From the IMG/VR virus record IMGVR_UViG_3300033417_000010, positions 1 to 55,866 of that record: DNA of 55,866 bases. One strand, 5' to 3'. The stretch is from a virus. Its lineage: Duplodnaviria; Caudoviricetes. Positions within the stretch are counted from its first letter, which is position 1, and each line of letters opens with the position of its first letter. The notes under the pieces are model-generated. The model had not been told where the DNA came from. It ran no database searches and saw only the letters and a program-made list of their open reading frames with translations. A program made the position numbers and the translations under genes. Below, in pieces: positions 1 to 53,608 of this stretch.

Positions 1-126
1 TCGATCGCGCTGATGTACTCATCGACCTGCGGCCTCAGCTCGTCCCAGATCGCGGCCATTTCTGGTGTCAGGTGCTTGGGCTTTTTCATGGCTACGCCGT
101 CCAGCGGGCGGGCGCGGGCTCGCCCA
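1..126. repeat. Terminal direct repeat (circular assembly overlap), copy 1
   Basis: Bases 1-126 are identical to 55736-55861. Genes read continuously across the junction. Confidence 0.95.
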
Positions 127-547
127 ACAGGCCGCGGGTATCCCAGTGGACGAATGTCGAATACGTCCCGACGCCCCACAGATCCCGGTCGCGCCCCGGA
201 AACAGCCGCTCCATGGCCTCCACAGTCTCGGCCACCGACAACCCGAGCACCGTGCAGTCGAACGCATTGAACCTCATGTGAATCGAGCCGCTGGCACCGC
301 CGACCGCGTTGTTCGCCCGATAGTCCCGGTAGCCTCGCCGGCCGTGTGCGCGCGTGCAGATGACGATCGGCTTGCCGATGTAGCTCCGGAACCGCTGGAT
401 GCGCACGATCGTCGGCATGGCGTTGTCCCACAGGCCCATCGGCGGGACGCCGCCTGTCTCGGTGGCGAACTCGGACGGCACAAAGTCTGTGACGCCGTAG
501 CGTTGCAGCTCGCGGCCGAAGTCGCGCTCGTACAGGTCGTAGATCAC
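92..547 (-). CDS. Peptidase M15A-family (D-Ala-D-Ala carboxypeptidase-like) endolysin
   Basis: Motifs GYR..NxAVGGASGSIH..FNAFD and GVGTYSTFVHWDTRG provide the H, D, H zinc ligands typical of M15A. Located at the end of the late operon. Confidence 0.85.
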   Translation of the reverse strand: MIYDLYERDFGRELQRYGVTDFVPSEFATETGGVPPMGLWDNAMPTIVRIQRFRSYIGKPIVICTRAHGRRGYRDYRANNAVGGASGSIHMRFNAFDCTVLGLSVAETVEAMERLFPGRDRDLWGVGTYSTFVHWDTRGLLGEPAPARWTA

Positions 548-984
548 ACGCCCACGGCCGGCTCAGCCCCGCTCGCCACATCGTCCCACGTCGCCCAGCC
601 CTCGGCCGCGATCAGCGACGCAGGGAACGGCGGCACGTCGCCGGTCATTTCCTCGACCGCCCGCGCACAGTACAGCCACACGGTCAGAGACTGGTCCCGG
701 TCGCGACGGTAGCCGAGAGTGCCGTCCGGGCGGCGCATGATCTTGCCCTGACTGTACAGGTCCAGCCACGCCAGCCGGCCCTCGGTGGTGTCCTCCGCGA
801 ACCCGTCGCGGACCGCGTTGTGGAACGCGCGAACGTAGTGACTGCCGGCCGCGCCCTTGAAGTACTCGGTGATCCAGGTCTCCACGGTGCGCGCGTGCTG
901 GTCCGGCGCGTTGCCGGTCTGTATCGGGCCACTCGTCAGATAGACGTTGGTGGCCGCGTCGAAGATGATCTTGGTCGGTATCAT
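544..984 (-). CDS. Hypothetical protein (146 aa)
   Basis: Protein-like composition; stop/start overlaps with neighbours. Confidence 0.7.
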   Translation of the reverse strand: MIPTKIIFDAATNVYLTSGPIQTGNAPDQHARTVETWITEYFKGAAGSHYVRAFHNAVRDGFAEDTTEGRLAWLDLYSQGKIMRRPDGTLGYRRDRDQSLTVWLYCARAVEEMTGDVPPFPASLIAAEGWATWDDVASGAEPAVGV

Positions 985-1220
985 GCTGGCTCCGTTGGTG
1001 GTCTCGTGAAGTACTCGGCGTCGGCCGGATCGACAGCGCCCCAGCCGGACTCGGGGAACTCATCGGGCTTAACGAACCATCGAGTACCCGTCTCCAGCTT
1101 GGTGATCCGGATGCGGCCCTTCATGCACTTGCCCTTCGGCCCGGTGGCCTCGTTGACGATGTAGTCGTCATCGGCGGCCCAGACCGCCTCGAACGTGCCG
1201 ACCTTCTCGATGCGCGGCAT
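981..1220 (-). CDS. Hypothetical protein (79 aa)
   Basis: Coupled overlaps with flanking ORFs. Confidence 0.7.
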   Translation of the reverse strand: MPRIEKVGTFEAVWAADDDYIVNEATGPKGKCMKGRIRITKLETGTRWFVKPDEFPESGWGAVDPADAEYFTRPPTEPA

Positions 1221-1507
1221 CAGGCCGACACCCGGTTGCGGATCGCCTCGATGTCACGATTCATGTGCATGAGATCCCGCCCGATCGACGTGACCTCATT
1301 GCCGATCGTCTGGAGTCGCGACGTGGTACCGTCCTCGAATCCCTGCATCTGCGCGCTCAGTCTCGCGATCTCGGCATGCAGCCCCTCACACGGGTGCGGG
1401 GCCTTGCCCCTATCGCGGAACTGCGACGCGATCACGATGCCGAGCATGACCAGCACCACGCCGGGCGCGCCGTACTCGCCCAGCAGCGCGATGATCTCGG
1501 GGCTCAT
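1220..1507 (-). CDS. Small membrane protein with N-terminal TM and coiled coil (holin/antiholin-like)
   Basis: Hydrophobic segment GVVLVMLGIVIA followed by a heptad-like stretch; GGAGGT RBS upstream; near the endolysin. Confidence 0.6.
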   Translation of the reverse strand: MSPEIIALLGEYGAPGVVLVMLGIVIASQFRDRGKAPHPCEGLHAEIARLSAQMQGFEDGTTSRLQTIGNEVTSIGRDLMHMNRDIEAIRNRVSA

Positions 1508-2105
1508 CGGTGACTACCTCCATTCGCGTCCGGGGCTCCGCGACCACTGCGTATGCCATCAGTGTGAGCGCGATCAGTCGCACGGTCTGGTATCCGGTCC
1601 ATGTCATGATCCAGCCGGCCGTGAGACGCGGCGCCTGGAATCCGAGCGCAAGCAGGAACGGGATCGTCGCGCCACAATAGAGCACAAGCGCCGCCCGGTA
1701 CGGCGCAACCGCGGGCTGTCGGTACGCAACCAGCGCGATCCACGCGCCGGCCACGACATGCACGCCCATCTCGACGCTCTGTTGATCCGCGCCCGCCCAC
1801 GACACCGCGACCAGCAGCCCGTAGAACAGCCACACGATCCGCTGATGCTCGCGCGGCTGAACGACCGACATGATGACCGCGAACTGCACCGGGATCACGA
1901 CGTACGTCAGCCACAGCGTTTCGTGGCCGTTCGCGCGGAGCTGCCAGTCCATCCAGCCGGTGATGGCCGAGATTGCGAACGCGCAGACCAGCAGGATCGC
2001 GTCCGGGTCGGGCTTGCGACCGCGCAGGATCTCCCACACGACGGCCGCCAGCGGAACCAGCCCAATCGCGATCGCTCCAGCCTGCGCCCAGCGGAACGCA
2101 GTCAT
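1410..2105 (-). CDS. Polytopic (~7 TM) membrane protein
   Basis: About seven hydrophobic stretches; start overlaps the upstream stop (TGATG). Confidence 0.75.
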   Translation of the reverse strand: MTAFRWAQAGAIAIGLVPLAAVVWEILRGRKPDPDAILLVCAFAISAITGWMDWQLRANGHETLWLTYVVIPVQFAVIMSVVQPREHQRIVWLFYGLLVAVSWAGADQQSVEMGVHVVAGAWIALVAYRQPAVAPYRAALVLYCGATIPFLLALGFQAPRLTAGWIMTWTGYQTVRLIALTLMAYAVVAEPRTRMEVVTDEPRDHRAAGRVRRARRGAGHARHRDRVAVPR

Positions 2106-2407
2106 CAGTCGCCGTTGGGCGGCGGGTCACAGTCCGGCGGGCACGGGACCGCGATGTTGAAGCCTTCGCTTTCCTCCCCGTAGCCCGATGCCTTCGGCGC
2201 CTTCTCTGGCCGACTCGTGTAGTGCCAGAGCGTGACCACGCCTTTTTCGGTCAGCCCGAAACGCGCTCTCGGCTCTAGCGACTCATCAGCCTTCAGCGCC
2301 TCGAGAATCGCCTCCATGCCCTCCATAAACGCTTCCCGAGGCCAGCGGAAATACTGCGCCTCCAGCCCGGCCGCCCGGTACCTGCGCCTGTCCTCAGCCA
2401 TGCTCAT
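2105..2407 (-). CDS. Small protein with C-terminal PCPPxC motif (100 aa)
   Basis: ATG at 2407 with GAGGAGG RBS; ends FNIAVPCPPDCDPPPNGD. Confidence 0.75.
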   Translation of the reverse strand: MSMAEDRRRYRAAGLEAQYFRWPREAFMEGMEAILEALKADESLEPRARFGLTEKGVVTLWHYTSRPEKAPKASGYGEESEGFNIAVPCPPDCDPPPNGD

Positions 2408-2417
2408 AGTGCCCTCC

Positions 2418-2873
2418 TCAAGGTGTACGTCCTCGTACCCCACACCGCGCCAGCACGGCCGGCCCCGACTGCGCCGCGATGGCCTCGACGAAACACTCGA
2501 TCCGGTCGAGTCGCGCGGAGTCTGTCCGCTGTCGGTCGCGCAGCACGCGCAGCACATCGAGGCTGGACTCGACCGACTCCAGTCGTCGCAGCCCCTCGCC
2601 GACGATCTGGCCCTGCAGTCGGATGTGCTCGTCCAGCCGGACCGAATCGCTTTCGATGCGCTCGGCATTCACGAGGGCCGCTGCAGCCCCGCTCGCGAAT
2701 CGCTCGCGATCGAGAATGAACCTGCTGCCCGCCAGCCCCGCAGTCAGCCCGAGCCCGACCAGCCCTATCGCAGCGAGCGCGGCCTTGTGCGCACCGGACA
2801 GTTGGGTCAGCCAACCCCACGGCGTCGTGAGCAACCCAAGAGCAGCGGTTGCCGGCTGCCAGTCTACCGCCAC
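2418..2873 (-). CDS. TM plus coiled-coil protein, lysis accessory (holin/antiholin/spanin-like)
   Basis: Hydrophobic segment AALAAIGLVGLGLTAGLAG, then a coiled coil and two C-terminal Cys. Confidence 0.6.
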   Translation of the reverse strand: MAVDWQPATAALGLLTTPWGWLTQLSGAHKAALAAIGLVGLGLTAGLAGSRFILDRERFASGAAAALVNAERIESDSVRLDEHIRLQGQIVGEGLRRLESVESSLDVLRVLRDRQRTDSARLDRIECFVEAIAAQSGPAVLARCGVRGRTP

Positions 2874-4672
2874 GGCACGCCGGCAAGCAGCGCCTCTGCG
2901 CCCTGCGCCCACATATCGCCATACGTCTCATTCCACTGTTTCGGCGTGCCCAGGTACGCAGCCTGCGCACACTCGATCGCGGTCAGCGCGGCATCGGCGT
3001 ACCGCTGCTCGCCGGTCTCCTGCCACGCGACCGCGAAGATCCACGGATAGAAGCCCGCCGTGTCGCGCGACTCGCCGTTGACATCGCTCTGGCTGATCTT
3101 GTTCGAGAGGTAGGGCAGGCAGCGCACACCCTTGCGGGACACCTCGTCCGCCAGATGCGAGATGATCCTCATGGCGAGGTCGTACGCGACCCGGTCGCCG
3201 GTGTCGCGGAACCAGACGAGCAACGCGCGGGCGGCGAGCGCATTGATGAAATACGCCTCGGTCGTCCCAATCTCGCCATGCGTCGCGACCTTGCTGTGCA
3301 CGGGCGACTCGAGCGAGCCGTCACCACCGCGCCGCTGCTCCGCAGCCAGCATCCACTGCACCTGCTGTGCGCCCGCGGCGTCCCATGAACCCAGCCCGGC
3401 GTTGAACCCGCACGACGTGTTTGCCTGATTGCGCACGTACGGGATGCCCAAGCGACGCGCGATCGTGAATACCTGGAGCGAGATCGCGGGGATGCGCCAG
3501 CCGCCATTCAGGTTCGTGACCGACTGGTATCCCCACGGATCGGTCGTCGAGCACTGCGCGTTGACGTGCAGGTGCGTGAGCGCGTCCGGATCGCCCTCGA
3601 GCAGATACAGCGCCTCGATGCTGAACATGCCGGTGTTGTTGTGCGGCTGCATATTGAAGCTGTTCTTCTTGGTCCACTGGAGATACCAGCGAACTGCATC
3701 CACGCCATGCGAATAGATCGCGTTCGTGGCGTCCAGCGGCAGGCCGTGCCGGGTGCTCCACATCAGGCGGCTGACCAGCGCCCCGTAGTGCATCCCGGTC
3801 GCCGCCGTCTCGCCCGGCCGCGGCTGCGGTTGGGTCTGTCCGACAGCGACGTGGTCATATGACGCCTGCTCGGCCGCGATGTATCGCTGGTCGTAGCGCC
3901 CGAACGGAGCCGAACCCGTCGCCGTGATCGTCGGACCGAGCGTGTAGAACAGACCTGCTGGCGTGCGGTTCGTGCTGTCCGCGGGCGGCGGCGGCATCGG
4001 TGGCGGTGTCGGCGGTCCCGGCGGCGGTGCGGGAGCCGCCGAGTCCGGTGCGAGGATGCGCAACGTGTCCGCGCCCGCGGCCGTGACGGTCAGTGCATCG
4101 CCGGCACCGTAGTTCTGCCAGCCGACGACGGTCCGGCCGTTGCTCGTCGATGTGCGATTGAACACGCAGCACGTACCGTTGCCAAACTGCCCGCCGCTGA
4201 TCTCGAAGCGCACCGCGTGGCCCTGGATCGGGCTGCCCAGCGAGTCGCGAACGAAGACCTCAACGTCGCGGCCGAAGTTCGTCAGCGTCTCCGTGGCCGA
4301 CAGCGCAACAGCCGACGCGGGCGGCACCGTAGTCGTATCGGGTGGCACCGTCGTTGTGTCCGGCGGAATGGTCGTCGTGTCCACATAGACCGTATCGACC
4401 CGGACGACCGTGACCGTATCGACCCGGACCGGCGGCGCCTTGCCGGGCAGGTACGCGAACCCGTCCCAGGTCAGGCCGGTGCGCTCCTCCTGCAGCACGC
4501 AGCGCACGGCGTCCGCCTGCACGGGCACCCACTGCTGCACCCGGCTCCACACCGTCGAGTCCGAGTCCGGCCAGACGAACCAGTATCGAATCGGCTGCTG
4601 CTGACTCGGCTGCTGCGCGCTTGCCCCGCCACCAGCCGCGAGCAACGCGGCAACTATCAGTAATCGTTTCAT
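2864..4672 (-). CDS. Secreted protein: signal peptide, DTTT(I/V)PP repeats, Ig-like domain, Pro linker, helical (possible alpha/alpha-toroid) C-domain
   Basis: Start at MKRLLIVAALLAAGGGASA (signal-peptide-like) with AGGAG RBS; Ig-like motif VRDSLGSPIQGHAVRF; aromatic-rich helical C-terminus. Confidence 0.7.
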   Translation of the reverse strand: MKRLLIVAALLAAGGGASAQQPSQQQPIRYWFVWPDSDSTVWSRVQQWVPVQADAVRCVLQEERTGLTWDGFAYLPGKAPPVRVDTVTVVRVDTVYVDTTTIPPDTTTVPPDTTTVPPASAVALSATETLTNFGRDVEVFVRDSLGSPIQGHAVRFEISGGQFGNGTCCVFNRTSTSNGRTVVGWQNYGAGDALTVTAAGADTLRILAPDSAAPAPPPGPPTPPPMPPPPADSTNRTPAGLFYTLGPTITATGSAPFGRYDQRYIAAEQASYDHVAVGQTQPQPRPGETAATGMHYGALVSRLMWSTRHGLPLDATNAIYSHGVDAVRWYLQWTKKNSFNMQPHNNTGMFSIEALYLLEGDPDALTHLHVNAQCSTTDPWGYQSVTNLNGGWRIPAISLQVFTIARRLGIPYVRNQANTSCGFNAGLGSWDAAGAQQVQWMLAAEQRRGGDGSLESPVHSKVATHGEIGTTEAYFINALAARALLVWFRDTGDRVAYDLAMRIISHLADEVSRKGVRCLPYLSNKISQSDVNGESRDTAGFYPWIFAVAWQETGEQRYADAALTAIECAQAAYLGTPKQWNETYGDMWAQGAEALLAGVPWR

Positions 4673-4848
4673 GCTACAGGCTCCTTGTAAGATCGCTGAA
4701 CGTCCTGAGCGGACACCTTGCCGCCCTGGGCAGCCTTCCGCTCCATGAACAGTCGAACTCGCCGCGGCATACCGATATTCAGCCGGTCCCTCGCCCAGTC
4801 GTCGGCTTTCACCGCCAGCGCCGCGCGCTTCGAGCATCCGCATCCCAT
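4669..4848 (-). CDS. Small protein MGCGCSKR... (59 aa), not in ORF track
   Basis: Hand translation MGCGCSKRAALAVKADDWARDRLNIGMPRRVRLFMERKAAQGGKVSAQDVQRSYKEPVA; fills the gap and its stop overlaps the next ATG. Confidence 0.6.
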   Translation of the reverse strand: MGCGCSKRAALAVKADDWARDRLNIGMPRRVRLFMERKAAQGGKVSAQDVQRSYKEPVA

Positions 4849-4850
4849 AA

Positions 4851-6593
4851 TCAGATGTAGTAGCCAGTGATCGATGTCAGGTACGTGCGGCCGGCGACTC
4901 CACCGGTCTTGAGCACGACCTGATAGACGTACTGCCGGTACGGATCGACGCCCTGGACGCCGGGGCTGACCCCGACCCGGAAGCTGCCCTTGTACGCTTC
5001 GGTATTGCTGCCGCCGTACTCGAATCGCGGGTCTCGGCCGCTCGCGAGCAACGTTGGCGTGCCACCATCCTCGATCTGGTAGATGTCAACCGCGTACGGT
5101 CCGCCGGTCGCGGCCTCGATCGACTGTGTGTGATCCCAGGACAGCAGGTGGTAGTCGTGGCCGTTGGAGTCCGGATCGACCTGGAGTTCAACGGCCAGGT
5201 TCGACAGCGCGCCGCCCGTCGTGCCGGCGCCGATCTCCGGGTCGACCGGGTTCGGAATCAGCGGCCGGCTGATCGGCGCCTCGCGCCCAGTGATCCGCGT
5301 CAGGTCCTCCTGTTTGGCCGACAGTACGACGCGGCTGACGCCCGCCGTGGTCTTCCGCAGATCACGACGCAGATCCACGACGCGCGTCAGTACTGAACCG
5401 CTCAGCAATTCCGGGTCGAACACGGTCGCAGGCACGCCCTTCCGGATCTCGTCGAACTCGAACGTGGCCGGGTCGATCCGGTAGCGATCGGCGATGTCGA
5501 CCTCGTAGGACGCCTGCGGCTCGCCGAACAACGCAAGCTCATCGTTGGTCGCGTGCCAGAGCTGGTTGCTGGCGATCCGGTCGTAGAAGATCGGCGGCTT
5601 CGTGGGCGTCTGCGTGAACATCGCGGCGTCGAGGTAGAAGATCGCATCCTCGCCAATGCCGGCCCTCTTCATGACGCGCATCTTGACCTGTTTGGCGCCA
5701 ATCTCCCACAGGTCAATCCCTTCTATCGAGATATCCGTCCACACGTTCAGCCGCGTGATCTCGGCCAGTGCACCAGACGGGTCCGGGAAGACGACGCCGC
5801 CGGAGCTGTAGGCGCCGGACTGAGTGCCGATCGGGTCCGCGATGATCTCCATGCGGACGTCATCGCCCGTGATCAGCATCATGGATATCACGGCCGAGAA
5901 GTACGGGTGTTCGGCCGACGGGTACACCGGGAACCATTCCGACTCGATGCCAAAATGCGTCGTGCCGGTGCAGTCCATGTAGATCGAGTAGGGACCATAG
6001 CGGCGGTACCGCTCATCCGTGATCTGCTGATGGACGCCATCGACGTACGGCCACGAACTCGGGACCGCCGGCGTGCCGGTCCAGGTTTGCAGGAACGGGT
6101 CCGGGTTCAACACGTCGATCGGCGGGATGTCGTTCCTCTCGACTGTTGCCTCGACCATGCCGTAGGTCGAAATGGAGGCTGGCCGATCCAGCCGCGTGAG
6201 CTGGTACCAGCCGTTCGGAGCGCACGGGTCGATCACACGGATATGCACGAACTCGCCGACGACCAGCGTGTTCGGGTCGAACGTGCGAAGCGTCAGCACG
6301 CCGGCGGCCGTCGAAGCCGTGATCTCGAACAGCGTCGACGACCCGACGAGCTGGACGCCGAGCACGTTCAACTGGTCCGCGTACCGCACCGGATCGCCGG
6401 TCAGGTCCGGCCCGATCGTGATCGTCTGCGCGGTCACGTCCCGGTCGATGATCTCCCAGCGCGCATTGCCCATCGTCCAGTGGATGCCGTCGACCGCCAC
6501 GCCCTTCGGATAGACGCGGTTCCGCAGCACTCGCGCATCGAGATCGCGCGAGAGTCCGAGCAGGTTTTTGCGGTACCGCAGTCGGACGGTCAT
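4851..6593 (-). CDS. Tail tip protein; C-terminal part of Tal/prophage tail endopeptidase-like hub
   Basis: Starts RYRKNLLGLSRDLDARVLRNRVYPKG and later contains PQASYEVDIAD..FDEIRKG..V.DPEL, both typical of siphophage tail-hub proteins. Confidence 0.7.
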   Translation of the reverse strand: MTVRLRYRKNLLGLSRDLDARVLRNRVYPKGVAVDGIHWTMGNARWEIIDRDVTAQTITIGPDLTGDPVRYADQLNVLGVQLVGSSTLFEITASTAAGVLTLRTFDPNTLVVGEFVHIRVIDPCAPNGWYQLTRLDRPASISTYGMVEATVERNDIPPIDVLNPDPFLQTWTGTPAVPSSWPYVDGVHQQITDERYRRYGPYSIYMDCTGTTHFGIESEWFPVYPSAEHPYFSAVISMMLITGDDVRMEIIADPIGTQSGAYSSGGVVFPDPSGALAEITRLNVWTDISIEGIDLWEIGAKQVKMRVMKRAGIGEDAIFYLDAAMFTQTPTKPPIFYDRIASNQLWHATNDELALFGEPQASYEVDIADRYRIDPATFEFDEIRKGVPATVFDPELLSGSVLTRVVDLRRDLRKTTAGVSRVVLSAKQEDLTRITGREAPISRPLIPNPVDPEIGAGTTGGALSNLAVELQVDPDSNGHDYHLLSWDHTQSIEAATGGPYAVDIYQIEDGGTPTLLASGRDPRFEYGGSNTEAYKGSFRVGVSPGVQGVDPYRQYVYQVVLKTGGVAGRTYLTSITGYYI

Positions 6594-9500
6594 GGGCGGG
6601 CGCTCTGGTACTTGCTGAGGTAGCTGACAACAGCCGCCCGGTCATCGGTGCTCAGGACGTGATCGTAAGCCACGACCGCGAACCAGTCCGAGGGGAACAC
6701 GTTACTTCCGCCGCCATCGCCGCCGAAGAGCAGCGTCGCCGGCCAGCCGACCGTATTGGTCAATCGCTGCGCGACCTGCGTGCCGTTCATGTACTGCGTC
6801 TTGGTCCCGGCTTCCGCCGAGCTGCCGAACGTGTGAACCGCCGTCAGGTCGCCCGAACTCGCGTACGTGTAGCGCAGGCTGGTGCCGAAATTGTCATAGA
6901 TGTTACCGTCATTCCAGCAGTAGACTGAGACCGCGCCGCTGCCCAGGTGCCATGAGGCGTTATTATTCCCCGCCCCGCCCGCAGCCGGGCAATTGTCGTT
7001 TCGGAGTGCGATGAAAATTTCTGCCGCTGCGCCGAAGAAGTTCAGGACCTGTAGCCTACGAATCCCGGCGGCGGTAAACCGGACGGACGGCCAGCCAAGG
7101 CCCGCATCCGCATCGAACGTTGGCCGCAACCCGGCCGACGCCTGCACGAGATGGTTATCTTCGCCGGACTCATCATCCCACTGCGCGATGGGGTCAGTGT
7201 CGGCGTGCGTGGCCTCCAGCGATTCGACCTCGCAGAGCAGGAGCAGGCCGCCGATGTCCGACGGGTGGAACGACGGGCTGGGGCTCGGAGATGGAGAGGG
7301 CGAAGGTTCGGGGGACGGACTCGGCGACGGACTCGGCGACGGACTGGCCGAAGGCGATGCGCTCGCACTCGCGCCCACTGTGATCTGCTGCGTCGTCGTG
7401 CAGGTTGCCCCATCGTAATCCGTGACCGTCAGGCTGACCGTGTACGTCCCGTCCCCCGCATAGACGTGCGTCGGGTTCTGCTCGGTCGAGCCGGACGTTG
7501 AATCACCGAAGTCCCATTCCCATTCCAGCACTTCGGATGCCGGTGTCGAGCCGTCCGTAAACGTGACCGTCAATCCGCTCTCGTCCGCCGTGAACGAACA
7601 CACAAGGGTCGAATCCGCACCGACCGCCGTGATCAGATCGATCCGGTACAGGTCGCAGGCACGCGGGACGTCGAGTTCCATGCCTGTCGCTTCGGCCAGC
7701 TTGTAGAGCGCCGACAGCGGCGTGTCCCACGAGTATTCGATGGTCACAGGGTCCGTCGCTGCGTGGTTCCTGCCGGCCACGAAGTAACGGGGCGACTGGC
7801 CGAGAATGAAGTCGATGTGCTGCGCCGGCGTCAGAACGAGCGGGAAGTCGAAGTAGACCAGCCCGTTCGCTTCGATCCGCTTGAGCACGCGTGTTCCGAG
7901 GTCGTACCAGATCGCATCCAGCTCGAGCCGCGTCAGCAAAGCGTTCCGGTCGCCGCGCGAATCCGTAAGCCGGGCAACCCGGTACTCCGTGTAGGTCAGG
8001 TCCGCCCAGTGGATGCGCAGCACCTTCCGTGCGCGCAGGTACGTCCATACCTTGGCCGCCGTTATCGCGCCGGTCGCTCGCGGAAACAGAAGCTCCGCCC
8101 GCTCTTCGCCTTCCAGTTCCTCGTGATCGCTGACGTCGATGAACTGCGGCACGAACGCCTGACGGGAGGCGCCATTGCCTTCGACATCTGCCCAGATCTC
8201 GGCACGCCGTGCCCAGGTGACATGGATCGGATCCCTCGGGCAGGGTCCGGGGATAATCTCGATGCAGACTGTATCGAACGGACCGTACTCGCAGCCGTCG
8301 AAGGCGCGGACGTAGAGGATCAACTCGCCAGCCGGGATGCCGGCCATGCTCCACGGAGTGTCCGTGTCCGGCTGGATAGTCCCGAGCGCGAAGATCTCGA
8401 CCAGTGTCGCGCCACCATCGGCGCTGTAGTAGACCTCGTACGTCAGCGGGTCCGAGTCCGGGTCGGTCGCGGCGCTGAAGTTCAACGTGATCGACGTCGG
8501 CGCGCTGAACACCTGGCCGGCGAACGGTTTCACCCAGACCGGCGCGGTCGGCGGACTGTTTTCATCGATCGTGAAGCTGTCTTCGGCGCTCGTAGTTGGA
8601 GAACCGTCGACGGTGATCGTGGCCCGCCAGATGTAGTCGCCCGCCGGCAGCGCATAGGGCCCGAACGTCAGCAGGTCGGCGGCCTGATGGCCCGTGTCGA
8701 GCAGCGGGCTCGTGAAGTACGGATCGGACGCGGAGGCGATCTCCCAGCGCGTCGTCGAGTGGCCTGGGCCGTACGTGCCGCCCGGTGGCGTGATGTCGAG
8801 CGTGACCTCGTCGCAGACGACAGTGTCATCGGTGGGGATGATCGTCGTGAGGGGCGTACCCGCAGGGACCGGGCTGCAGGAAGGGTCGGACAAAAGAACG
8901 ATGCATGGCCGTGTGGTACCGATGGCACCCGAGCCACCAAACGTAGCCTGCAAAACTCGTCCGGTCGCAATGCCGCATCTGCCGCATGCAAACTCGTACC
9001 CCAAGTCAATGGTCTCATCCACATCCCAGTTGCCATCGTAAAACTGCGAGGTCCCTACAAAGCCACCCACACCAACGCCAACCTGCAACCGTACAACGGT
9101 CGGTTGCAGAATGCGGTCCGGCTTGGTCAGTCGAACGGTCAGCCCGACTTCCACGGAGTAGTCGCACAGCGGCGGCAGCGCTGTTTTCGTATACACCGAC
9201 CTCACGCCGCCGCCGCTGTGGGCGTTGTGCGTTGGGGCGCTGTTCGCGAACCCATACACCAGCTGCGACTGTACGCTCGATCCGTCATACGGATACCCGC
9301 CGACAGATAGCCCACTATTCGCCAAGCATGGCATAACCGCCTGGATTCGGATTCCGACGAACAGTCCAGTGGTCGTCTCATCCGCATCGTTACCCGATGC
9401 GCCGATCACAACACCAGCGGCCCACCCCTCGGCGGGATATGGAGCCCACCATGGTATTCCCGACGCCCAGGAAAACCCAACAACGGTAGAAACCTCCGCT

Positions 9501-10918
9501 TCGTCGGCATCAGGAACGACCAAGGAAGACGGGCATGCCGCTGTTAGCGGCACGGCAAACGCACCTCCGAGTGAATAATGTATGCCTCCCGAACGGAAGA
9601 AATTGCCGAAACCCCAGTATATCTCGGTGGGTTCAGGGCAACCGTACGACCTGAGCCCGCCGTTGTCGACGACTGCCTCTGTATAAGCGTTTTCCTGAAT
9701 CGCGGGTGTCTCGAGCCAGAACACCAATCTTGTGCCATCTGGATACGGGAACGTGGTGAAACCGATCAGAGATTGGGTGCCTAGATTCAACAGCTGCGTC
9801 CATGTCGCGCCCCGATCATCGCTTACGTACAGACTGGACAGATTGAAGGTCGGTTTCCACGATACAGTGTAACCCGTCCCCGAGATTGCTTCGCCAAATT
9901 CGGGCGCGATGAACCGCTGTCCAATCGATAGGTACGGATTAGCCACTGGCGTTACTGCAAGCGTCGTGAACGACTTCGCGAGCTGCGCCGGCTGCCAGCC
10001 CGCAGCCGTCCGGACGGTGATGCGGCTGAGGTAGGTCGTGCTGGCAGTCAGGCCTGACGCCGTGTGCAGGTAGCGATTCGCGCCCGCGTCCGTCTGGTCG
10101 TAGACCGGGCTCGTGAACGCTGAATCGGCCGGCGTAGTGATCTCGTAGCGGACTTCGAGGATCGCCGCATCCTGTTCGACGCTGAACGCGGCTTCCGTGT
10201 CCGATGCTGCGGCGACCGACCAGTTGTATTCCACTGGCGGCGAGCCCATTCCAGCGTCGAAGTGCGCTTCGATGCGCGCGTCGGAAAGGGCACTCTGGTA
10301 CGCGGCGAGCCGGCCGAAATACTGGCTCATTGCGTTGCCGAGGCCGCCGTACCCTCCCTGGCCGCCGAAGTGGAACGCATTGCTCGAGCCGGTCAGCGGC
10401 CCCGCATTGTTCTCCGCTACCTTTACGCCATCTAGCCAGATGCTCGATAGATCGGCGGCGTGCTGCCGGCGAAAGACGATGTGATAGTAGCCGCCTACCT
10501 CGATCAGACCGTCAGCCGTGGTGAGATCGTCGCCAGTATAGCTGAGCGAGATCGCGCCGGCCGCCGTGATGAAGCCTTGAGCGAGCCAGTGGCTGAACAG
10601 GATGGACCCGTTCATCCATAGTTCGAGCCCTGTGGCGAGTGTGTCGATCTTCAGCCAGCACTCCAGCGTGAAGTCGGCATTGTTCAGGTTCAGCGACGGG
10701 AAAAAGATGCGAGCCAGGTCGCCCTTGATCGACGTCCCGCTCGGCTCGCTCAGCAGGACTGTAGGCTGGCCGTACAGCGCGGGCGAGCCGCCCGTGAAGA
10801 AGTCGAACGTCGTGGCGTGCCGGGCATTCCCCGATGAGTCCTGCGGCAACCCCGACACATCTTCGCACTTCCAGTATCCCCAGGGGCTGTCGGCCGCCAC
10901 TTCAGCGTCGTACGCCAC
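6590..10918 (-). CDS. Large tail/adhesin protein: LamG-like, FN3-like domains, Tal N-half, PKD, Ser-Pro linker, C-terminal lectin-like domain
   Basis: LamG motifs (FTLECW, YYHIV, ALSDARIEAHF); PKD motif WEWDFGD..STEQNPTHVY..GTYTVSLTVTD; (SP)n linker; directly downstream of Dit. Confidence 0.8.
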   Translation of the reverse strand: MAYDAEVAADSPWGYWKCEDVSGLPQDSSGNARHATTFDFFTGGSPALYGQPTVLLSEPSGTSIKGDLARIFFPSLNLNNADFTLECWLKIDTLATGLELWMNGSILFSHWLAQGFITAAGAISLSYTGDDLTTADGLIEVGGYYHIVFRRQHAADLSSIWLDGVKVAENNAGPLTGSSNAFHFGGQGGYGGLGNAMSQYFGRLAAYQSALSDARIEAHFDAGMGSPPVEYNWSVAAASDTEAAFSVEQDAAILEVRYEITTPADSAFTSPVYDQTDAGANRYLHTASGLTASTTYLSRITVRTAAGWQPAQLAKSFTTLAVTPVANPYLSIGQRFIAPEFGEAISGTGYTVSWKPTFNLSSLYVSDDRGATWTQLLNLGTQSLIGFTTFPYPDGTRLVFWLETPAIQENAYTEAVVDNGGLRSYGCPEPTEIYWGFGNFFRSGGIHYSLGGAFAVPLTAACPSSLVVPDADEAEVSTVVGFSWASGIPWWAPYPAEGWAAGVVIGASGNDADETTTGLFVGIRIQAVMPCLANSGLSVGGYPYDGSSVQSQLVYGFANSAPTHNAHSGGGVRSVYTKTALPPLCDYSVEVGLTVRLTKPDRILQPTVVRLQVGVGVGGFVGTSQFYDGNWDVDETIDLGYEFACGRCGIATGRVLQATFGGSGAIGTTRPCIVLLSDPSCSPVPAGTPLTTIIPTDDTVVCDEVTLDITPPGGTYGPGHSTTRWEIASASDPYFTSPLLDTGHQAADLLTFGPYALPAGDYIWRATITVDGSPTTSAEDSFTIDENSPPTAPVWVKPFAGQVFSAPTSITLNFSAATDPDSDPLTYEVYYSADGGATLVEIFALGTIQPDTDTPWSMAGIPAGELILYVRAFDGCEYGPFDTVCIEIIPGPCPRDPIHVTWARRAEIWADVEGNGASRQAFVPQFIDVSDHEELEGEERAELLFPRATGAITAAKVWTYLRARKVLRIHWADLTYTEYRVARLTDSRGDRNALLTRLELDAIWYDLGTRVLKRIEANGLVYFDFPLVLTPAQHIDFILGQSPRYFVAGRNHAATDPVTIEYSWDTPLSALYKLAEATGMELDVPRACDLYRIDLITAVGADSTLVCSFTADESGLTVTFTDGSTPASEVLEWEWDFGDSTSGSTEQNPTHVYAGDGTYTVSLTVTDYDGATCTTTQQITVGASASASPSASPSPSPSPSPSPEPSPSPSPSPSPSFHPSDIGGLLLLCEVESLEATHADTDPIAQWDDESGEDNHLVQASAGLRPTFDADAGLGWPSVRFTAAGIRRLQVLNFFGAAAEIFIALRNDNCPAAGGAGNNNASWHLGSGAVSVYCWNDGNIYDNFGTSLRYTYASSGDLTAVHTFGSSAEAGTKTQYMNGTQVAQRLTNTVGWPATLLFGGDGGGSNVFPSDWFAVVAYDHVLSTDDRAAVVSYLSKYQSARP

Positions 10919-24105: not shown

Positions 24106-26034
24106 TCAGAATCGGTTCGCCCACGAACCGCCGCCGCCCGCCGCCGCGGCTTCGGGTTGCTCGGGCTTCGATGGCGGCTCCGGCGGCTTCGACCATTCGT
24201 CCGCGCGGTTCTTCAGCTGAGATCTCACCGTCGGGCCGAGCGTATGGAGCGCGGCAAGGCCCAGAACGTACAGGTCGATCGCCTCGTTTCGTCGCTCGAT
24301 CTGGACGAATTTCGCCCGGTAACGCCCTGCACTGCGCTTTTCTTCGCGCTTTTCGGCCCGAAACTGCTGGATGAAGTTCGCATCCGCGCCCATGGGGAAC
24401 GCGACAGGCAGATGGATGTAGCCGGGCGCCACCAGTCCCGGTTCCGGCTGCTTCATCTTGAGTCGCTCGAACAGCGAATTCTTGAATGAGTCGACCTGCA
24501 CGGTCCAGGGCATCACGCCGTACTTGTTCGGCCGCTCGGCGCGTGAGAGCACGTTCTTCGCGCGGGTGTCGTAGCCGAGCATCGCCGACACGCCCTCGGA
24601 CTCCTTGCCGCGGACGTACGGATAGACGACACCGGGGCCCTTGTGCCGGGCGTCGACGCCGACAGGCCAGATCAAGACCTCCCGCCCACTCTCGTGCAGC
24701 CATTTGCGCTGCCGGATCGCTTCGACCGTCGCGAACGTGCCGGCCGTCTCCGGGTCGCCGTAGATCCGCTCGTGATAGACGAGCCAGCATTCCTCGCCTG
24801 TGCCCCAGCCCCACACGGCCGCTTCGATCCAGTCCGCCTGAACATCCACTGACATCGACAGGATTCCGACGCCGTGCGGCACGTCGATCTCGCGGCCCCC
24901 TTCTTCGATCGGGCGCCGCCAGTTCTCCCGGCGCGACTCGAGGCGGCTCGTGGATATGTCTTCGTTCGACTCGGTGTAGACCTCGGCGAGAACCGTGTTC
25001 ACGAAGCCGCGGCGCGCGACTGGATCCGGGTACACGGTGAGCCACTCGTCGACGAGCTTCGGCCACTCGGATCCAGCGAGCGTGACGGACAGCGCGGAGA
25101 AGTGGAAGCCGTATGACCGGGCGGACCCGTCTCGCACCGGTTCGCCGTCCTCCGTCAGATACTTTCCCTGCGGAATAACCGCGTGCTTCTCCTCGTCGTA
25201 GAACACGCAGCCGTTCACCGCGCAGACGTAGTACGCCGTTTCCGGGTTGCCACGCTCCCACTTCATGCCGAACGGCGTATCGCGGTCGCCCCAGCGGAGG
25301 ACCTGGTACTCGTCGCAGTGCGGGCATGGCACGTGGAAGCGGCCGCGACGTTGGGCCTGGTCGTACAGCTTCTTGATCCGCGAGCGCTCGTGTGTCGGCG
25401 TGGAGATCCAGAGGTATTGGCGGTCGGGCGAGCGCTCCGCGCGGCGACGGGCCAGCGTGATCTGGTCGCCCTCGCTGCCAGCCGACTCGGCCCATCCGTC
25501 GACGTCGTCGCCGGCGACGATGCGGACCGTGACCATTCGGAAGCCGCGGGCCGAATTCGATCCGACGAGACCGAGCCAGCCGCCGGGGAACTGCTTCTCG
25601 AGGATCGTGTTCGCGCCATCGCGAGACCGGGGGTCGCTGACACGGCCGGCGAGCGGTGGCCGCTCGATGATCGGCGCGAGCTTCTTCTTCGACCACTTCT
25701 CCGCCTCGTCAATTGACGGCAGGATCACGAGGATCGGGCAGGGATCCTGGTCGATGTGATAGCCGAGCACAGTGAGCAGCAGACCGTCCGTCGCACCGGC
25801 CTGCGTCGGCTTCATGACAGTGACTTCCTCAGTCTCTGGGTCCTCAAGTGCGTCGATGATGTCGATCAGGTACGGCGTCCGGTCGAACCGTAGGGGAATC
25901 TTGCCCGACACGCCGACGAGACGGTTCTGCTCGCCCCATTCCCGCCGCGTGACCAACGGCTCAGGGCGGAACCGGTCTGTCGCCTGGCGTTCAGCTTCGG
26001 CGACGCGACTTTCGAGTAGTGCGGCGTCGCTCAC
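24106..26034 (-). CDS. Terminase large subunit, lambda GpA family
   Basis: TPYLIDI, KPTQAGAT (Walker A variant), GDDVD, ISTPT, VPCPHC, SVDVQ motifs. Confidence 0.95.
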   Translation of the reverse strand: MSDAALLESRVAEAERQATDRFRPEPLVTRREWGEQNRLVGVSGKIPLRFDRTPYLIDIIDALEDPETEEVTVMKPTQAGATDGLLLTVLGYHIDQDPCPILVILPSIDEAEKWSKKKLAPIIERPPLAGRVSDPRSRDGANTILEKQFPGGWLGLVGSNSARGFRMVTVRIVAGDDVDGWAESAGSEGDQITLARRRAERSPDRQYLWISTPTHERSRIKKLYDQAQRRGRFHVPCPHCDEYQVLRWGDRDTPFGMKWERGNPETAYYVCAVNGCVFYDEEKHAVIPQGKYLTEDGEPVRDGSARSYGFHFSALSVTLAGSEWPKLVDEWLTVYPDPVARRGFVNTVLAEVYTESNEDISTSRLESRRENWRRPIEEGGREIDVPHGVGILSMSVDVQADWIEAAVWGWGTGEECWLVYHERIYGDPETAGTFATVEAIRQRKWLHESGREVLIWPVGVDARHKGPGVVYPYVRGKESEGVSAMLGYDTRAKNVLSRAERPNKYGVMPWTVQVDSFKNSLFERLKMKQPEPGLVAPGYIHLPVAFPMGADANFIQQFRAEKREEKRSAGRYRAKFVQIERRNEAIDLYVLGLAALHTLGPTVRSQLKNRADEWSKPPEPPSKPEQPEAAAAGGGGSWANRF

Positions 26035-26524
26035 TCTTCCTCGGCTTCGGCTTCGTGCCGTTCGTGTGCGAGCCGGCCAACTCGTTCAGCAGCTCGTTCA
26101 CGAGCCGGCGCAGTCGTTGCTGCGCCTGCCTGGTCTTCACCTCCGGGAACTCCGGCGGCCAGCGAGAGGGCAGGCCTTTCAGTGTCGCGTTCCATGAGTC
26201 GACGAGGCGCGAAATCCGATCGCGGTGAAGCTCGATCGGCATCAACGATCCCTCGAGCGCGGCGGCCTCCATTTCGGCTTTCCGGGCCAACGCATCCATG
26301 CGCCTCGTGCGCGCCGCCTCGTGCGCTTCGCTGGCTTCGTTCCGCGGCCGGATCTGCTCGCGGAGATAGTTCACGTACCAGCGAACGCACTCGGTCTCGG
26401 GGAACCGGCCGCGCGACGACTTCGGCAGACCGTGCTCCTTCACGAGCTGGTTCACGCGCTGGGGCGTGAGGTCCAGCAGCTCCGCCAGCTCGGTCGCCGT
26501 GACGGTGCGCGGTCGCTTCGGCAT
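25991..26524 (-). CDS. Terminase small subunit, Nu1-like
   Basis: N-terminal wHTH (ELAELLDLTPQRVNQL..GLP..RGRF..CVRWY) and coiled coil; directly upstream of TerL. Confidence 0.85.
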   Translation of the reverse strand: MPKRPRTVTATELAELLDLTPQRVNQLVKEHGLPKSSRGRFPETECVRWYVNYLREQIRPRNEASEAHEAARTRRMDALARKAEMEAAALEGSLMPIELHRDRISRLVDSWNATLKGLPSRWPPEFPEVKTRQAQQRLRRLVNELLNELAGSHTNGTKPKPRKSERRRTTRKSRRRS

Positions 26525-30926: not shown

Positions 30927-31526
30927 TCAGGCGCCCTGAATGGTGTGCGTGAACGTATGCGTCACGTAGTCCTCGGCCTCGTAGACGCTGTCGAACTCGC
31001 GCAGCTCTTCGGCGCCCAGCGGCATCTCGACACCCACCCTGTCGGGCTCGCCCCATCGGAGCATCCGTCCGAGACACTCGAAAGAACCGTCCGTCTTGCG
31101 GTGGTAGAAGTACCGCTCTGGTCCATCGATCGAGAACCACTTCGTGTAGAAGAGCGGCTCGTGCTGTCCGGCCGCGGCGTAGACGCCTTCCGTCATCGTC
31201 CGATACGACGAGAACTGCTCGAACTCCGGCGGCTTCGGCAGCGGGAACACCGGGGCTGTGCGCTCCGGCTTCTCGCGGTTCCAGCGCGGCCGGATCTTCA
31301 GCTTCAGCGGCTCAGATTGCTCGACGTCGAAACCACTGAGGTCGATCGAGCCGCCCCGGTTGTTGATGCGAAGATCGAGGGATTCGCGACTGTGCATGAC
31401 ATCCTCGCCCATTGACTTCGGACGCTGCCACTCGATGAAGATCGTGGACACGGCCGAGTCTGACGGTCCGTTCTCGCTCGGCGCCTTGATGCTCAGGCCG
31501 TTATGACTGAATACCGATAGCTGCAT
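30927..31526 (-). CDS. Hypothetical protein within the glycan cluster
   Basis: 199 aa ORF filling the gap; no motif recognised. Confidence 0.6.
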   Translation of the reverse strand: MQLSVFSHNGLSIKAPSENGPSDSAVSTIFIEWQRPKSMGEDVMHSRESLDLRINNRGGSIDLSGFDVEQSEPLKLKIRPRWNREKPERTAPVFPLPKPPEFEQFSSYRTMTEGVYAAAGQHEPLFYTKWFSIDGPERYFYHRKTDGSFECLGRMLRWGEPDRVGVEMPLGAEELREFDSVYEAEDYVTHTFTHTIQGA

Positions 31527-32322
31527 TGAGAATCTCCATCGTTCGCGTGAACACCCTGTCCGGATCGTCCCACGCATGCTTCGCCAACTCGATCGGCGAT
31601 CCGGTGTGGTTCGCTTCGTGGTACCGGTGCATCTTCACTGGCCAGTACTGCGGCTCCATCGGCCGGCCGTGCTCGTCGTTCACGGAGCCCGGAGCGACCA
31701 GCCCGTCGGCGTGCGTGATCATGAGCAGCGGCCGGCCGCAGAGCACGGCGAGATGCGCGAGGCCGGCATCGGTCGCGACGACGAGCCTGGCGGAGTGCAT
31801 GGCCTCGATCGTCGCGTCGAGCTGGCGGTCGAGGTCCCATGCCTTCGGGCACGGTACGTCGAACGACGAATCGGCCGCGCCGCCCGCGAACACATTCAGA
31901 CCTTCGGCGTTCAGCCGCGCCGTCAGGTCCACCCAGTGCGGCCAGTTCTTCTCGGCGCCGTAGTTGCGCCAGCGCGGGCAGACGACGACGTCGCACGAGA
32001 CGCCCTGCGGCCAGTGCGGCCGCGGCACGAATCGCTTCCGCGGCCAGCGGTCTGACGGCTTCAGCAGCTCGGCGGCCGGGAATCGCCACCTGGCCACCGC
32101 CTCGAATACGGGCGTGCCATCATCCTTCGCGTAGTTGTTGCGGCGCCTGTCATCGTGCTGGCGGTCGACCTCGGTCCATTCGCGGGCCGACGGATACAGC
32201 GCCTGCTCGCCAGCCTCGATGTAGCAGACGTCCGGCTCGATTGCGTGCACGGCAGGGACGTGCCACCATAGTTTAAGCCCGAACTCGCCGCGAAACGGCA
32301 GGACGACATTCATGACCTTCAT
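31501..32322 (-). CDS. GT-B glycosyltransferase, GT9 (heptosyltransferase)-like
   Basis: GEFG near the N-terminus, EKNWPHW and VATDAGLAHLAVLCGRP motifs. Confidence 0.8.
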   Translation of the reverse strand: MKVMNVVLPFRGEFGLKLWWHVPAVHAIEPDVCYIEAGEQALYPSAREWTEVDRQHDDRRRNNYAKDDGTPVFEAVARWRFPAAELLKPSDRWPRKRFVPRPHWPQGVSCDVVVCPRWRNYGAEKNWPHWVDLTARLNAEGLNVFAGGAADSSFDVPCPKAWDLDRQLDATIEAMHSARLVVATDAGLAHLAVLCGRPLLMITHADGLVAPGSVNDEHGRPMEPQYWPVKMHRYHEANHTGSPIELAKHAWDDPDRVFTRTMEILNAAIGIQS

Positions 32323-33200
32323 GACCGCCTCCGGTGTATCTGCTCGAGCGCATCGAGCAGCTGTCGTCGCTCCGCCGCCACGGCCTCGCGCACCGCCTCG
32401 TAGTCGTCCTCGGCCATCAGCGCACGTCGCCGATATGCCTCGCGGGCGTTCCCGCAGATCTCGCAGGTGACGGCCTCGTCAACGTCGCGACAGTGCAGCG
32501 TCAGCCGCGCGCCGCAAACCGCCACCCGCTCCGGCGGGGAGATGACGTGAACGACGTTCATTTCATCCGCGAAGAAGTGCGGGGGCAGTTCCCACCAGAG
32601 CGGATACCCCTGCTCGCGGAGCCACTCGCCGTGGACGTCCTCGATCGCGAGGATCTCCGAGGGGCCGAGATCGCGCCGCCAGTCCGACGCGGTGCGGTGC
32701 CCAGCATGCAACTGCGTGAGCGGGTCCACGCCACGCGACGGCTCGCGCAGCGCGTCGACGCACCGCACGACGTAGTGCGGGTCGGCGTCACTGCCGATCG
32801 CCTCGAGGATGCTCCGTGTGGTGTCGACGGGATGTTCGACCGCCTCCTCGTAGCGCACGATCAGGTGCGCCGCGCCCTGCCAGGACAGCCATTCGCGGCG
32901 GAGCAGGTTGCTGAGCCACTCGACGATCCGGTCGCGGTCGCGCGGCACCATGCGCCTCCGGACCGCGGACGCGGCAACGGCGCGGAGGTCACGGATCGTC
33001 ATGACGATCGCGTCGGCGTTCAGGAACCAGTGCTGCCAGCCGTGCGCCTTCACGACGTGTTTCGGCCGGCGGTTCTCGCGGTCGTAGCGGTCCTCGAAGG
33101 CCGCGTAGACGTCCTCGCCGAGCCCGATCCGGATCGTGTTGTAGAGCCATGTCGAGCCGGACCGGTGCAGGCCGCCGGAGATCACAGTGATCCGGTTCAC
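32319..33200 (-). CDS. Sulfotransferase-family protein with C-terminal Zn-finger-like extension
   Basis: 5'-PSB loop GLHRSGSTWLYN, VKAH, 3'-PB RDLR..AAS, IVRYE; tail H..C..CEIC. Confidence 0.8.
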   Translation of the reverse strand: MNRITVISGGLHRSGSTWLYNTIRIGLGEDVYAAFEDRYDRENRRPKHVVKAHGWQHWFLNADAIVMTIRDLRAVAASAVRRRMVPRDRDRIVEWLSNLLRREWLSWQGAAHLIVRYEEAVEHPVDTTRSILEAIGSDADPHYVVRCVDALREPSRGVDPLTQLHAGHRTASDWRRDLGPSEILAIEDVHGEWLREQGYPLWWELPPHFFADEMNVVHVISPPERVAVCGARLTLHCRDVDEAVTCEICGNAREAYRRRALMAEDDYEAVREAVAAERRQLLDALEQIHRRRS

Positions 33201-33844
33201 GCGACCGCCTCCCATCGCTGACGCAGCCAGTGCGTCGGCTCGAGTTCCGTCATCCGCGGCCGGCCGTGCATGCAGACGACGCGAGCGTTCTCGGGCAGCC
33301 CGGTCCGGCAGTGCGCCTTGCTCGAGACGACCAGCCCGGGCCAGAGGTCCTGGATGAAGTGGCCGCGGCCCATGAACCGCTTCGTGAACTCATCCGAACG
33401 GCGCCGGAAGGTTCGCATGTGAGCCTCGGGATCCTTCGTGAACTCGCGGTAGATGTCGGCCATCTCGTCACCGATCCAGAGCATCATGCCGGAACCGATC
33501 ATGTTCTCGCGGTAGCGGAAGAAGTCACGCAGGAACGCTCGAGGCCCGGTGTAGCCCGTGAACGGCACCAGGTCACCGGTGATCACGGTGTCGAGGTCGA
33601 CGTAGATCACGAGATCGTCGAACAGGCTGGTCGTGAACAGCTCCTGCTTCGCCCACCAGCCCGGCCAGTCGTGACGAAGCGGTTCGACGCAGACTCCGCG
33701 ATCTATTCCGCGCGGGTCGTCCGTGAGACAGACAAAGTCGTGGTCGACGGGAAGGTGACGCTGCACCCCGGCATACAGCCGGTTCACCCATTCGGCGGTG
33801 TACGTCCCGCCGCCGGTCCGAAGCACCGTGACGACCGTGATCAC
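33197..33844 (-). CDS. GT-A glycosyltransferase, GT8-like
   Basis: FVCLTD, GWWAKQELF, YVDLDTVI, VCMHGRP motifs. Confidence 0.8.
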   Translation of the reverse strand: MITVVTVLRTGGGTYTAEWVNRLYAGVQRHLPVDHDFVCLTDDPRGIDRGVCVEPLRHDWPGWWAKQELFTTSLFDDLVIYVDLDTVITGDLVPFTGYTGPRAFLRDFFRYRENMIGSGMMLWIGDEMADIYREFTKDPEAHMRTFRRRSDEFTKRFMGRGHFIQDLWPGLVVSSKAHCRTGLPENARVVCMHGRPRMTELEPTHWLRQRWEAVA

Positions 33845-53279: not shown

Positions 53280-53480
53280 CTACTCGACCAGCTCCCACAC
53301 GCCAGTCTCGAGAGCGCGTGCGATGGCCTCCTGCTCGCGCCAGCGCACGGGTCGCTCGCCCGCCTCGACCTGCGACACCGTCTGTCGCGCCCAGCCGAGC
53401 CGGCGGCCCAGCTCGGCCTGGCTGATCCCGGCCCGCTCGCGCAGGACGCGAATCCGCTCGCCAATCTCAGGATCCGTCAT
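53280..53480 (-). CDS. XRE-family HTH regulator (66 aa)
   Basis: IGERIR.LRERAGISQAELG..QTVSQVEAGER..IARAL. Confidence 0.9.
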   Translation of the reverse strand: MTDPEIGERIRVLRERAGISQAELGRRLGWARQTVSQVEAGERPVRWREQEAIARALETGVWELVE

Positions 53481-53518: not shown

Positions 53519-53547
53519 TTGACACCCGGACCGGCATCCGCTATATT
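53519..53547 (+). promoter_or_regulatory. Sigma70-type promoter TTGACA-17-TATATT
   Basis: Near-consensus match upstream of the plus-strand operon. Confidence 0.75.
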
Positions 53548-53608
53548 ACCTGTGTGCGGGAGAGACAGCCCGCCACCCGATTCCACTCTCTCACGAGGAT
53601 GGCCCGAA

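Follow-up and report, generated by a model that had tools for sequence, protein, structure and literature searches.

A PCPPxC protein and a seven-helix membrane protein ahead of a phage endolysin, with relatives in bacterial kinase loci

The cassette and its place among the phage genes

The linear IMG/VR virus record IMGVR_UViG_3300033417_000010, which has a completeness estimate of 85%, was analysed over its full 55,866 bases (hereafter, the window). Our subject is a pair of adjoining genes near one end of the window, both on the minus strand, which encode a small soluble protein of 100 amino acids (aa) with a PCPPxC-type end (2105-2407) and a seven-transmembrane (7TM) protein of 231 aa (1410-2105), together with the relatives of this pair in phages and bacteria. 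The open reading frame (ORF) of the small protein is preceded by GAGGAGGG. An earlier annotation of this DNA (the original prediction) had described the two ORFs as translationally coupled, and base 2105 is indeed common to the TGA of the small gene and the ATG of the 7TM gene (TGATG). It had also placed a membrane-anchored coiled-coil protein next and the endolysin two small ORFs later, which is the order that we see. The Arg-rich tail of the 7TM protein overlaps a gene (1220-1507, minus strand) for a single-helix coiled-coil protein of 95 aa, whose hydrophobic helix is at the N-terminus and whose remainder is also helical; this ORF starts 98 nucleotides (nt) ahead of the 7TM stop, with GGAGG in front. 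On the same strand there follow ORFs of 79 aa (981-1220) and 146 aa (544-984), which belong to no known family and gave no match in Pfam, PHROG or PADLOC, and then the endolysin, a Peptidase_M15_3 protein (92-547; Pfam 8.7e-11, PHROG 894 endolysin 4.2e-15).

Upstream of the small gene, again on the minus strand, lies an ORF of up to 164 aa (2418-2912) with an uncertain true start, one hydrophobic helix and a helical remainder, for which no Pfam or PHROG family was found. It is preceded by the gene for a 659-aa tail-associated protein (2864-4843, minus strand; weak Big_1 match) that is kept upstream of the cassette in its relatives. The minus strand carries nearly all genes of the window, including all those from this tail protein to the endolysin. 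The GC content at third codon positions (GC3) is 0.80-0.88 in the cassette genes, like that of their neighbours, and because of this and their conserved relatives we regard the cassette ORFs as real genes, not chance frames. A scan of positions 1-5200, which used the sigma-70 consensus only, found no promoter- or terminator-like site. Since the genes share a strand, overlap at starts and stops, resemble their neighbours in GC3 and have no such site between them, the cassette would belong to a late operon.

The region, the 7TM protein and the small protein were all unmatched when compared by blastn and tblastn with 50,697 phage records. Profile scans of viral contigs returned nothing with profiles A1 and A2, and only one other viral contig with A5 and A7. 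This contig (L005, a 58.7-kb record) has the same trio of genes between a tail protein homologous to the window's 659-aa protein (blastp 6e-9 over ~470 residues) and a different endolysin, of Amidase_2 type. Its genes run in the order tail protein, small protein (ending PCPPFC), 7TM protein, a homologue of the 95-aa protein (blastp 6e-8 and 3e-7), another single-helix protein, a 72-aa ORF that is two-helix by eye, a patatin-like protein and the endolysin. The 95-aa homologue overlaps the 7TM gene by 98 nt, as in the window, provided that its GTG start is right. Two short metagenome contigs (L001 and L002) carry the end of the tail protein, a single-helix ORF, the small protein and then the 7TM protein; their single-helix ORFs are unrelated to the window's 164-aa ORF, which occupies the same place. 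Thus the pair recurs outside the window, in a second viral contig and two metagenome contigs, with the small gene immediately upstream of the 7TM gene in all four phage-type loci whose DNA was analysed and a homologous tail protein ahead of the cassette in each. The trio stays constant while the endolysin type varies (M15 versus Amidase_2). A further metagenome match, L003, was excluded as a wrong-frame match within an unrelated gene. As a separate observation, L005 carries a patatin-like phospholipase (5.4e-11) and the 72-aa ORF between its cassette and its Amidase_2 endolysin (9175-10377; 9287-9505), and it is uncommon for a presumed Gram-negative phage to have a lipase among its clustered lysis genes.

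The constant position of the cassette behind the same tail protein would fit a membrane accessory role apart from lysis, for instance in superinfection exclusion or envelope change, with the adjacency to the endolysin being incidental. Membrane proteins of unknown role are often encoded between tail-fibre and lysis genes, as is the case for lom and bor of lambda and gp15 of HK97, and no holin-like feature ties the cassette to lysis. We nevertheless find this explanation doubtful: the starts and stops of the cassette overlap those of its late neighbours, there is neither a promoter or terminator signal of its own nor a shift in GC3, and its homology to sensor modules with kinase or DNA-binding outputs, described below, points to signalling.

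The small protein and the seven-helix protein

The small protein of the window has no hydrophobic segment, and its final residues are PCPPDCDPPPNGD. The C-terminus given in the original prediction did contain this PCPPxC-type end, but as quoted it stopped four residues short of the full end, which reads GFNIAVPCPPDCDPPPNGD. A search of 5.8 billion clusters (90% clusters) gave 17 relatives besides the window protein, all of 91-104 aa, and the family is marked by a conserved N-terminus (MSMxEDxxRY..AGL) and the C-terminal PCPPxC. This motif (or PCPPC) is kept in 17 of the 18 phage-type members, the exception having V for the first Cys and no second Cys. In eight of the 18 the chain ends at the second Cys, and in four more it ends one residue later. 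Neither the small protein nor the 7TM protein gave a match among Pfam, NCBIfam, PHROG or PADLOC models. The structure model of the small protein has a predicted local distance difference test (pLDDT) score of 69.2, and a fold search with it returned nothing above Z 4.0.

The 7TM protein shows seven hydrophobic segments by hydropathy and seven helices in its AlphaFold2 model (pLDDT 88.3). A profile of five close 7TM proteins found 75 representatives at E<=0.001 among 1.84 billion proteins (50% clusters), mostly of ~195-260 aa. In the resulting 76-sequence alignment P18, S46, an Asp near position 50, Q74, Y143 and R176 are near-invariant. Positive charges are grouped in the loops at 28-33, 83-89 and 128-137 and in the tail, and due to these clusters we infer an N-out/C-in topology, which is in keeping with the bacterial 7TM proteins that are fused to cytoplasmic DNA-binding domains. 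With the protein placed in this way, the conserved polar residues lie in the middle-to-outer half of the bundle, which suggests a pocket open to the periplasm. Searches with the 7TM model in Foldseek against PDB and BFVD gave nothing at E<=0.001, and a VIA fold search returned only generic 7TM bundles resembling G-protein-coupled receptors (best Z 12.7, root-mean-square deviation 4.2 over 186 residues). An enzyme assignment was dropped after a Pfam search of the 76 members, which gave scattered weak hits only (YhhN in 2/76, MerC in 2/76). Among the members, a metagenomic protein of 257 aa (P0017) has its last helix replaced by an FtsB/DivIC-like C-terminus, FtsB being its name in the source; it is otherwise nearly identical to P0016, and represents either a true fusion or an assembly chimera.

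As a classical holin was not seen within the last 3 kb of the window, the 7TM protein might itself be the hole-forming lysis protein, an unusual holin for which the small protein would serve as a cytoplasmic inhibitor; RIII of phage T4 is a small cytoplasmic antiholin. We hold this to be very improbable. A protein of 231 aa with seven helices is outside the known holin classes and gave no PHROG or Pfam holin match, its bacterial homologues are sensor parts of regulators, and in L005 the separate 72-aa ORF is holin-like by eye. The window, moreover, is cut just past the endolysin, and a holin may lie beyond.

Bacterial relatives of the pair and the genome of the phage

The original prediction had pointed, by way of a pattern string, to uncharacterised bacterial proteins encoded ahead of a 7TM protein and a two-component system. 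The string has no literal fit to the window's protein, but the bacterial family that it indicated does exist, and PCPPxC + 7TM pairs before a histidine kinase and LuxR-type regulator were found in two phyla. In what follows, genome tallies are samples and lower bounds, and the gene starts at bacterial loci are our own ORF calls. The first phylum was entered by way of a terminase scan, which led to two metagenome-assembled genomes (MAGs) titled Gemmatimonadota (37% identity), followed by whole-genome searches; we call it Gemmatimonadota on the strength of one record title. Here the 7TM profile matched at 17 places in 14 of 401 genomes, a floor that reflects a stricter filter. A small ORF adjoins the 7TM gene at all 17 places, ending in PCPPxC in 16 and in PCPIYC in one, and among 18 aligned bacterial neighbour proteins PCPPxC is likewise kept in 17, with one PCPIYC.

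Immediately downstream of the 7TM gene there is a histidine kinase at eight of the 17 places and a kinase remnant at one, whose locus contains an insertion sequence, while four are cut by contig ends. A regulator with REC and GerE domains follows in seven of the eight kinase loci; in the eighth (L047) none was seen among the scanned ORFs. These kinases have one N-terminal hydrophobic helix followed by HisKA_3, with no sensor domain, and in five of the eight the kinase frame begins 67-85 nt ahead of the 7TM stop, an arrangement that the phage 95-aa gene shares. One genome holds four copies without a kinase, three of which are 7TM-AraC fusions; one fusion was recognised by Pfam (HTH_18, 1.1e-8) and the two others by eye, from a clearly similar C-terminal part. 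Family member P0070 is identical to the fourth kinase-less copy, in which the tail is rich in Cys. At locus L043 (5145-9854) transposase-like ORFs come between the small gene and the 7TM gene; the latter is followed by an 84-aa kinase remnant, and the opposite strand carries a complete kinase and regulator at a distance of ~4-8 kb.

The second phylum was centred on a MAG titled Ignavibacteriota. The bacterial small-protein profile gave matches in 38 of 301 genomes, often several per genome, and behind the small gene an ORF with 4-7 helices (~210-245 aa, from a crude hydropathy count) was seen in all 12 loci examined. A kinase comes next in 10 of these 12 (HisKA_3, or PAS with HisKA), one of the others being at a contig end and one having no kinase in sight. 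A REC+GerE regulator is present in seven of the 12 loci and a hybrid kinase in one. Bacteroidota Atlas clusters of 92-97 aa and 122-171 aa agree with this finding. At one locus (L067, 1888-4362, minus strand) three consecutive multi-helix ORFs of 221-233 aa stand between one small gene and the kinase, and here the membrane partner may have been expanded in tandem.

Phage and bacterial pairs are homologous, with conserved gene order. For the small proteins, three sets were compared, namely 18 phage-type (A7), 14 kinase-linked bacterial (A8) and four kinase-less bacterial sequences (A9). The phage-type set aligned by hhalign to the kinase-linked set with a probability of 94.3% (E 1.1e-7, 56 columns) and to the kinase-less set with 96.4% (E 1.3e-9, 73 columns); the motif contributes part of these scores, and the alignment covers the preceding strands too. 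For the membrane protein, a profile of 16 phage-type 7TM sequences (A4) matched the kinase-less bacterial copies at 82, 58, 55 and 23.8 bits, and the kinase-linked copies at 19-36 bits. In all, A4 matched 14 first-phylum 7TM ORFs at 19-82 bits and one second-phylum ORF at 13.9 bits. An earlier high score, obtained with profile A3, was partly circular, as A3 contains P0070; the A4 comparison is free of this. The homology that the original prediction had proposed is thus upheld for both proteins.

Also as predicted, no kinase follows the pair in the phage: a Pfam scan detected neither a kinase nor a receiver domain in the cassette ORFs or the other scanned ORFs of the window. However, the claim that the 95-aa protein contains a HisKA_3-like helix did not survive. 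It has no Pfam match at E<=0.1, and none in PHROG, PADLOC or NCBIfam; against a hidden Markov model of the N-termini of nine neighbouring kinases it scored 5.2 bits, and the hhalign probability against the kinases was 0.9%. These two values lend no support to its being a kinase remnant, and its likeness to the front end of the kinases consists in position, overlap and a helix-plus-coiled-coil build only. The build of the 95-aa and 164-aa proteins would also fit that of an i-spanin (N-terminal helix plus coiled coil), and neither matches a Pfam or PHROG family. A simple screen for an o-spanin, over positions 1-3100 on both strands and ORFs of at least 35 aa, found no lipobox after a hydrophobic stretch.

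The small proteins differ in their N-termini. Phage forms and most first-phylum forms lack a signal peptide, while of 13 ORFs read in the second phylum nine begin with a signal peptide or membrane anchor and four do not. The two proteins of the pair may therefore meet on different sides of the membrane in different subfamilies. At one locus (L058) a signal-less copy stands ahead of the 7TM gene and a signal-bearing copy behind it, and at another (L066, 1051-1803, equal to L078, 1381-2133) a 250-aa ORF consists of two tandem small-protein domains, of which the first lacks PCPPxC.

Signal peptides in some bacterial members raise the question of whether the pair could be a precursor with its processor, as in Agr or ComQXPA, with the C-terminal Cys motif of the small protein being cut or cyclised and the product exported by the 7TM protein as a signal. 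An invariant motif at the extreme C-terminus, with most members ending right past the second Cys, is what might be expected of such a precursor, and the order of small gene, membrane protein, HisKA_3 kinase and LuxR-type regulator resembles that of ComQXPA. Yet the small protein is a folded domain of ~100 aa that is conserved throughout, not a leader with a core peptide; the 7TM protein contains no protease or transferase motif known to Pfam; and a single-helix kinase would be left with no receptor. We therefore judge a processing function improbable.

The remainder of the phage genome is informative about its type. Pfam matches among the window ORFs include a gpA-type large terminase, a lambda-family portal, an S49 protease-capsid fusion, a Dit-like tail protein and a 1,442-aa tail protein, on the basis of which we take the window to be from a lambda-like siphovirus. 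Relatives of its terminase and endolysin are confined to phages of Gram-negative hosts. Several other features were seen far from the cassette. An 87-aa ORF at the far contig end (55561-55824, minus strand) matches Terminase_4 (5e-7), a small terminase subunit, and is ~30 kb from the large terminase (24106-26034), which has its own helix-turn-helix (HTH)-type neighbour at 25991-26524. Adjacent ORFs at 31501-33215 (minus strand) have weak matches to a heptosyltransferase (Glyco_transf_9, 4.7e-5) and a sulfotransferase (9.6e-5), and may be phage genes that modify envelope sugars. A Cro/CI-type HTH gene (53280-53480, minus strand; 7.5e-16) stands opposite a divergent 140-aa ORF (53519-53941, plus strand), and together these look like a lysogeny switch; an integrase was not found among the scanned ORFs of this record, which is an estimated 85% complete.

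Interpretation and comparison with known systems

Our leading interpretation, which is tentative and which we rate at somewhat less than an even chance, is that the phage has, in its PCPPxC protein and 7TM protein, a copy without the kinase of a bacterial membrane signalling unit that is widespread and so far undescribed. The bacterial loci have the pair ahead of a single-helix, sensor-less histidine kinase, usually followed by a LuxR-type regulator, or else a 7TM-AraC fusion. Due to its fixed place before sensor-less kinases and its fusions to DNA-binding domains, the 7TM protein is most likely the signal-input part. In the phage, the single-helix coiled-coil protein would take the place of the kinase, including a start that falls within the 3' end of the 7TM ORF. 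Through those conserved polar residues of the 7TM bundle that face outward, the unit would detect a cue in the periplasm or the membrane; it would pass the signal to the small protein, the coiled-coil protein or both, with an output that sets a late function, most probably the timing of lysis. As the cassette lies in a late gene block and the trio is kept beside two endolysin types, a sensing unit for a late step is favoured. The role of the phage unit in lysis timing or host signalling is nevertheless something that we infer from gene context.

Several observations weigh against this interpretation. No solved relative gives either protein a function, such that the proposed role is a predicted one, and the best fold match of the 7TM model falls short of the Z of ~13 that helical bundles can reach by chance. 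The equivalence of the 95-aa protein to the kinase is positional only, with no kinase homology detected. The compartment of the small protein may differ between subfamilies, and the scan that showed no separate promoter was limited to one consensus. Just 91 bases of the window lie beyond the endolysin, and because neither a classical holin nor an o-spanin was found before that end, the term 'lysis module' rests on the endolysin and on proximity. Lastly, the host assignment is weak, as the large terminase is 37% identical to the proteins of the two Gemmatimonadota-titled MAGs and 36% identical to that of an Acetobacter.

The host assignment also bears on a different use of the same parts. The phage 7TM protein and its small partner could capture a single-helix HisKA_3 kinase of the host that relies on a 7TM partner of this kind, lock it on or off, and so rewire the host regulon. 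The bacterial kinases beside the pair, which have one helix and no sensor domain, would be open to capture by a foreign 7TM protein; the phage keeps just the sensor half, without kinase or regulator; and the bacterial systems do occur in the best-guess host phylum. On the other hand, the phage-type 7TM proteins are nearer to the kinase-less copies (55-82 bits in three of four, 23.8 in the fourth) than to the kinase-linked ones, and expression with the late operon would be late for host reprogramming. We consider such interference unlikely.

A further variant of the signalling interpretation seems to us a distant prospect, the least probable of those considered. Here the small protein, which in the phage has no signal peptide, would be freed at lysis, and neighbouring infected cells would detect it from outside through their 7TM protein; in these cells the coiled-coil partner would then delay or advance lysis. 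The signal-peptide-bearing bacterial relatives may likewise be sensed in the periplasm. If true, this would be a case of protein-based communication among phage-infected cells of a Gram-negative host.

Should the leading interpretation hold, namely that of a kinase-less phage copy of a bacterial signalling unit, it would mean that an unnamed four-gene system, comprising a Cys-motif protein, a 7TM protein, a single-helix kinase and a LuxR-type regulator, is common, and that it offers a new class of sensor input, open to testing, for kinases that lack a sensor. Phages would have taken the sensor half of this system, without the kinase, into their late genes beside the endolysin. This would offer a direct way to learn whether, before lysis, phages that infect little-studied soil bacteria read a signal from the envelope or from outside. 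Literature searches on the motif, on 7TM proteins with HisKA_3, on seven-helix phage lysis cassettes and on Gemmatimonadota phages returned nothing relevant, with most subscription journals outside their scope. To our knowledge, a receptor-like 7TM protein that comes with its own partner has not been described from a phage, nor did the searches turn one up.

Comparisons can be made with several known systems. The lysis-inhibition proteins of T4, namely the holin T and the antiholins RI and RIII, are likewise small soluble and membrane proteins encoded with lysis genes, which could adjust the time of lysis to a signal. They share no homology with the cassette, whose seven-helix protein is not of a holin class and whose effect on lysis is a prediction. 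In ComQXPA and Agr, the order is also that of a small gene, a membrane protein, a kinase (HisKA_3 in ComP) and a regulator (LuxR-type in ComA). The systems described here differ in that the modifying enzyme is missing, the small protein is a folded domain of ~100 aa, and receptor and kinase are separate proteins.

The 7TMR-DISM, 7TMR-HD and 5TMR-LYT families provide a multi-helix membrane domain as the input to kinases or DNA-binding outputs, as we propose here. In contrast to these, the 76 members and the bacterial copies gave no match to a Pfam model for such domains, the small partner gene is obligate, and the phage copies stand alone. A parallel in gene arrangement is with LiaFSR, VraTSR and BceAB-BceRS, three-component systems in which an accessory membrane protein works with an intramembrane-sensing HisKA_3 kinase; in the bacterial relatives, too, a sensor-less HisKA_3 kinase and a LuxR/NarL-type regulator follow a separate membrane protein, presumably the source of the input. 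In contrast to those systems, the membrane partner is a 7TM bundle outside the known families that is always behind a PCPPxC protein, the kinases have one helix and not two, and the phage carries the pair with neither kinase nor regulator.

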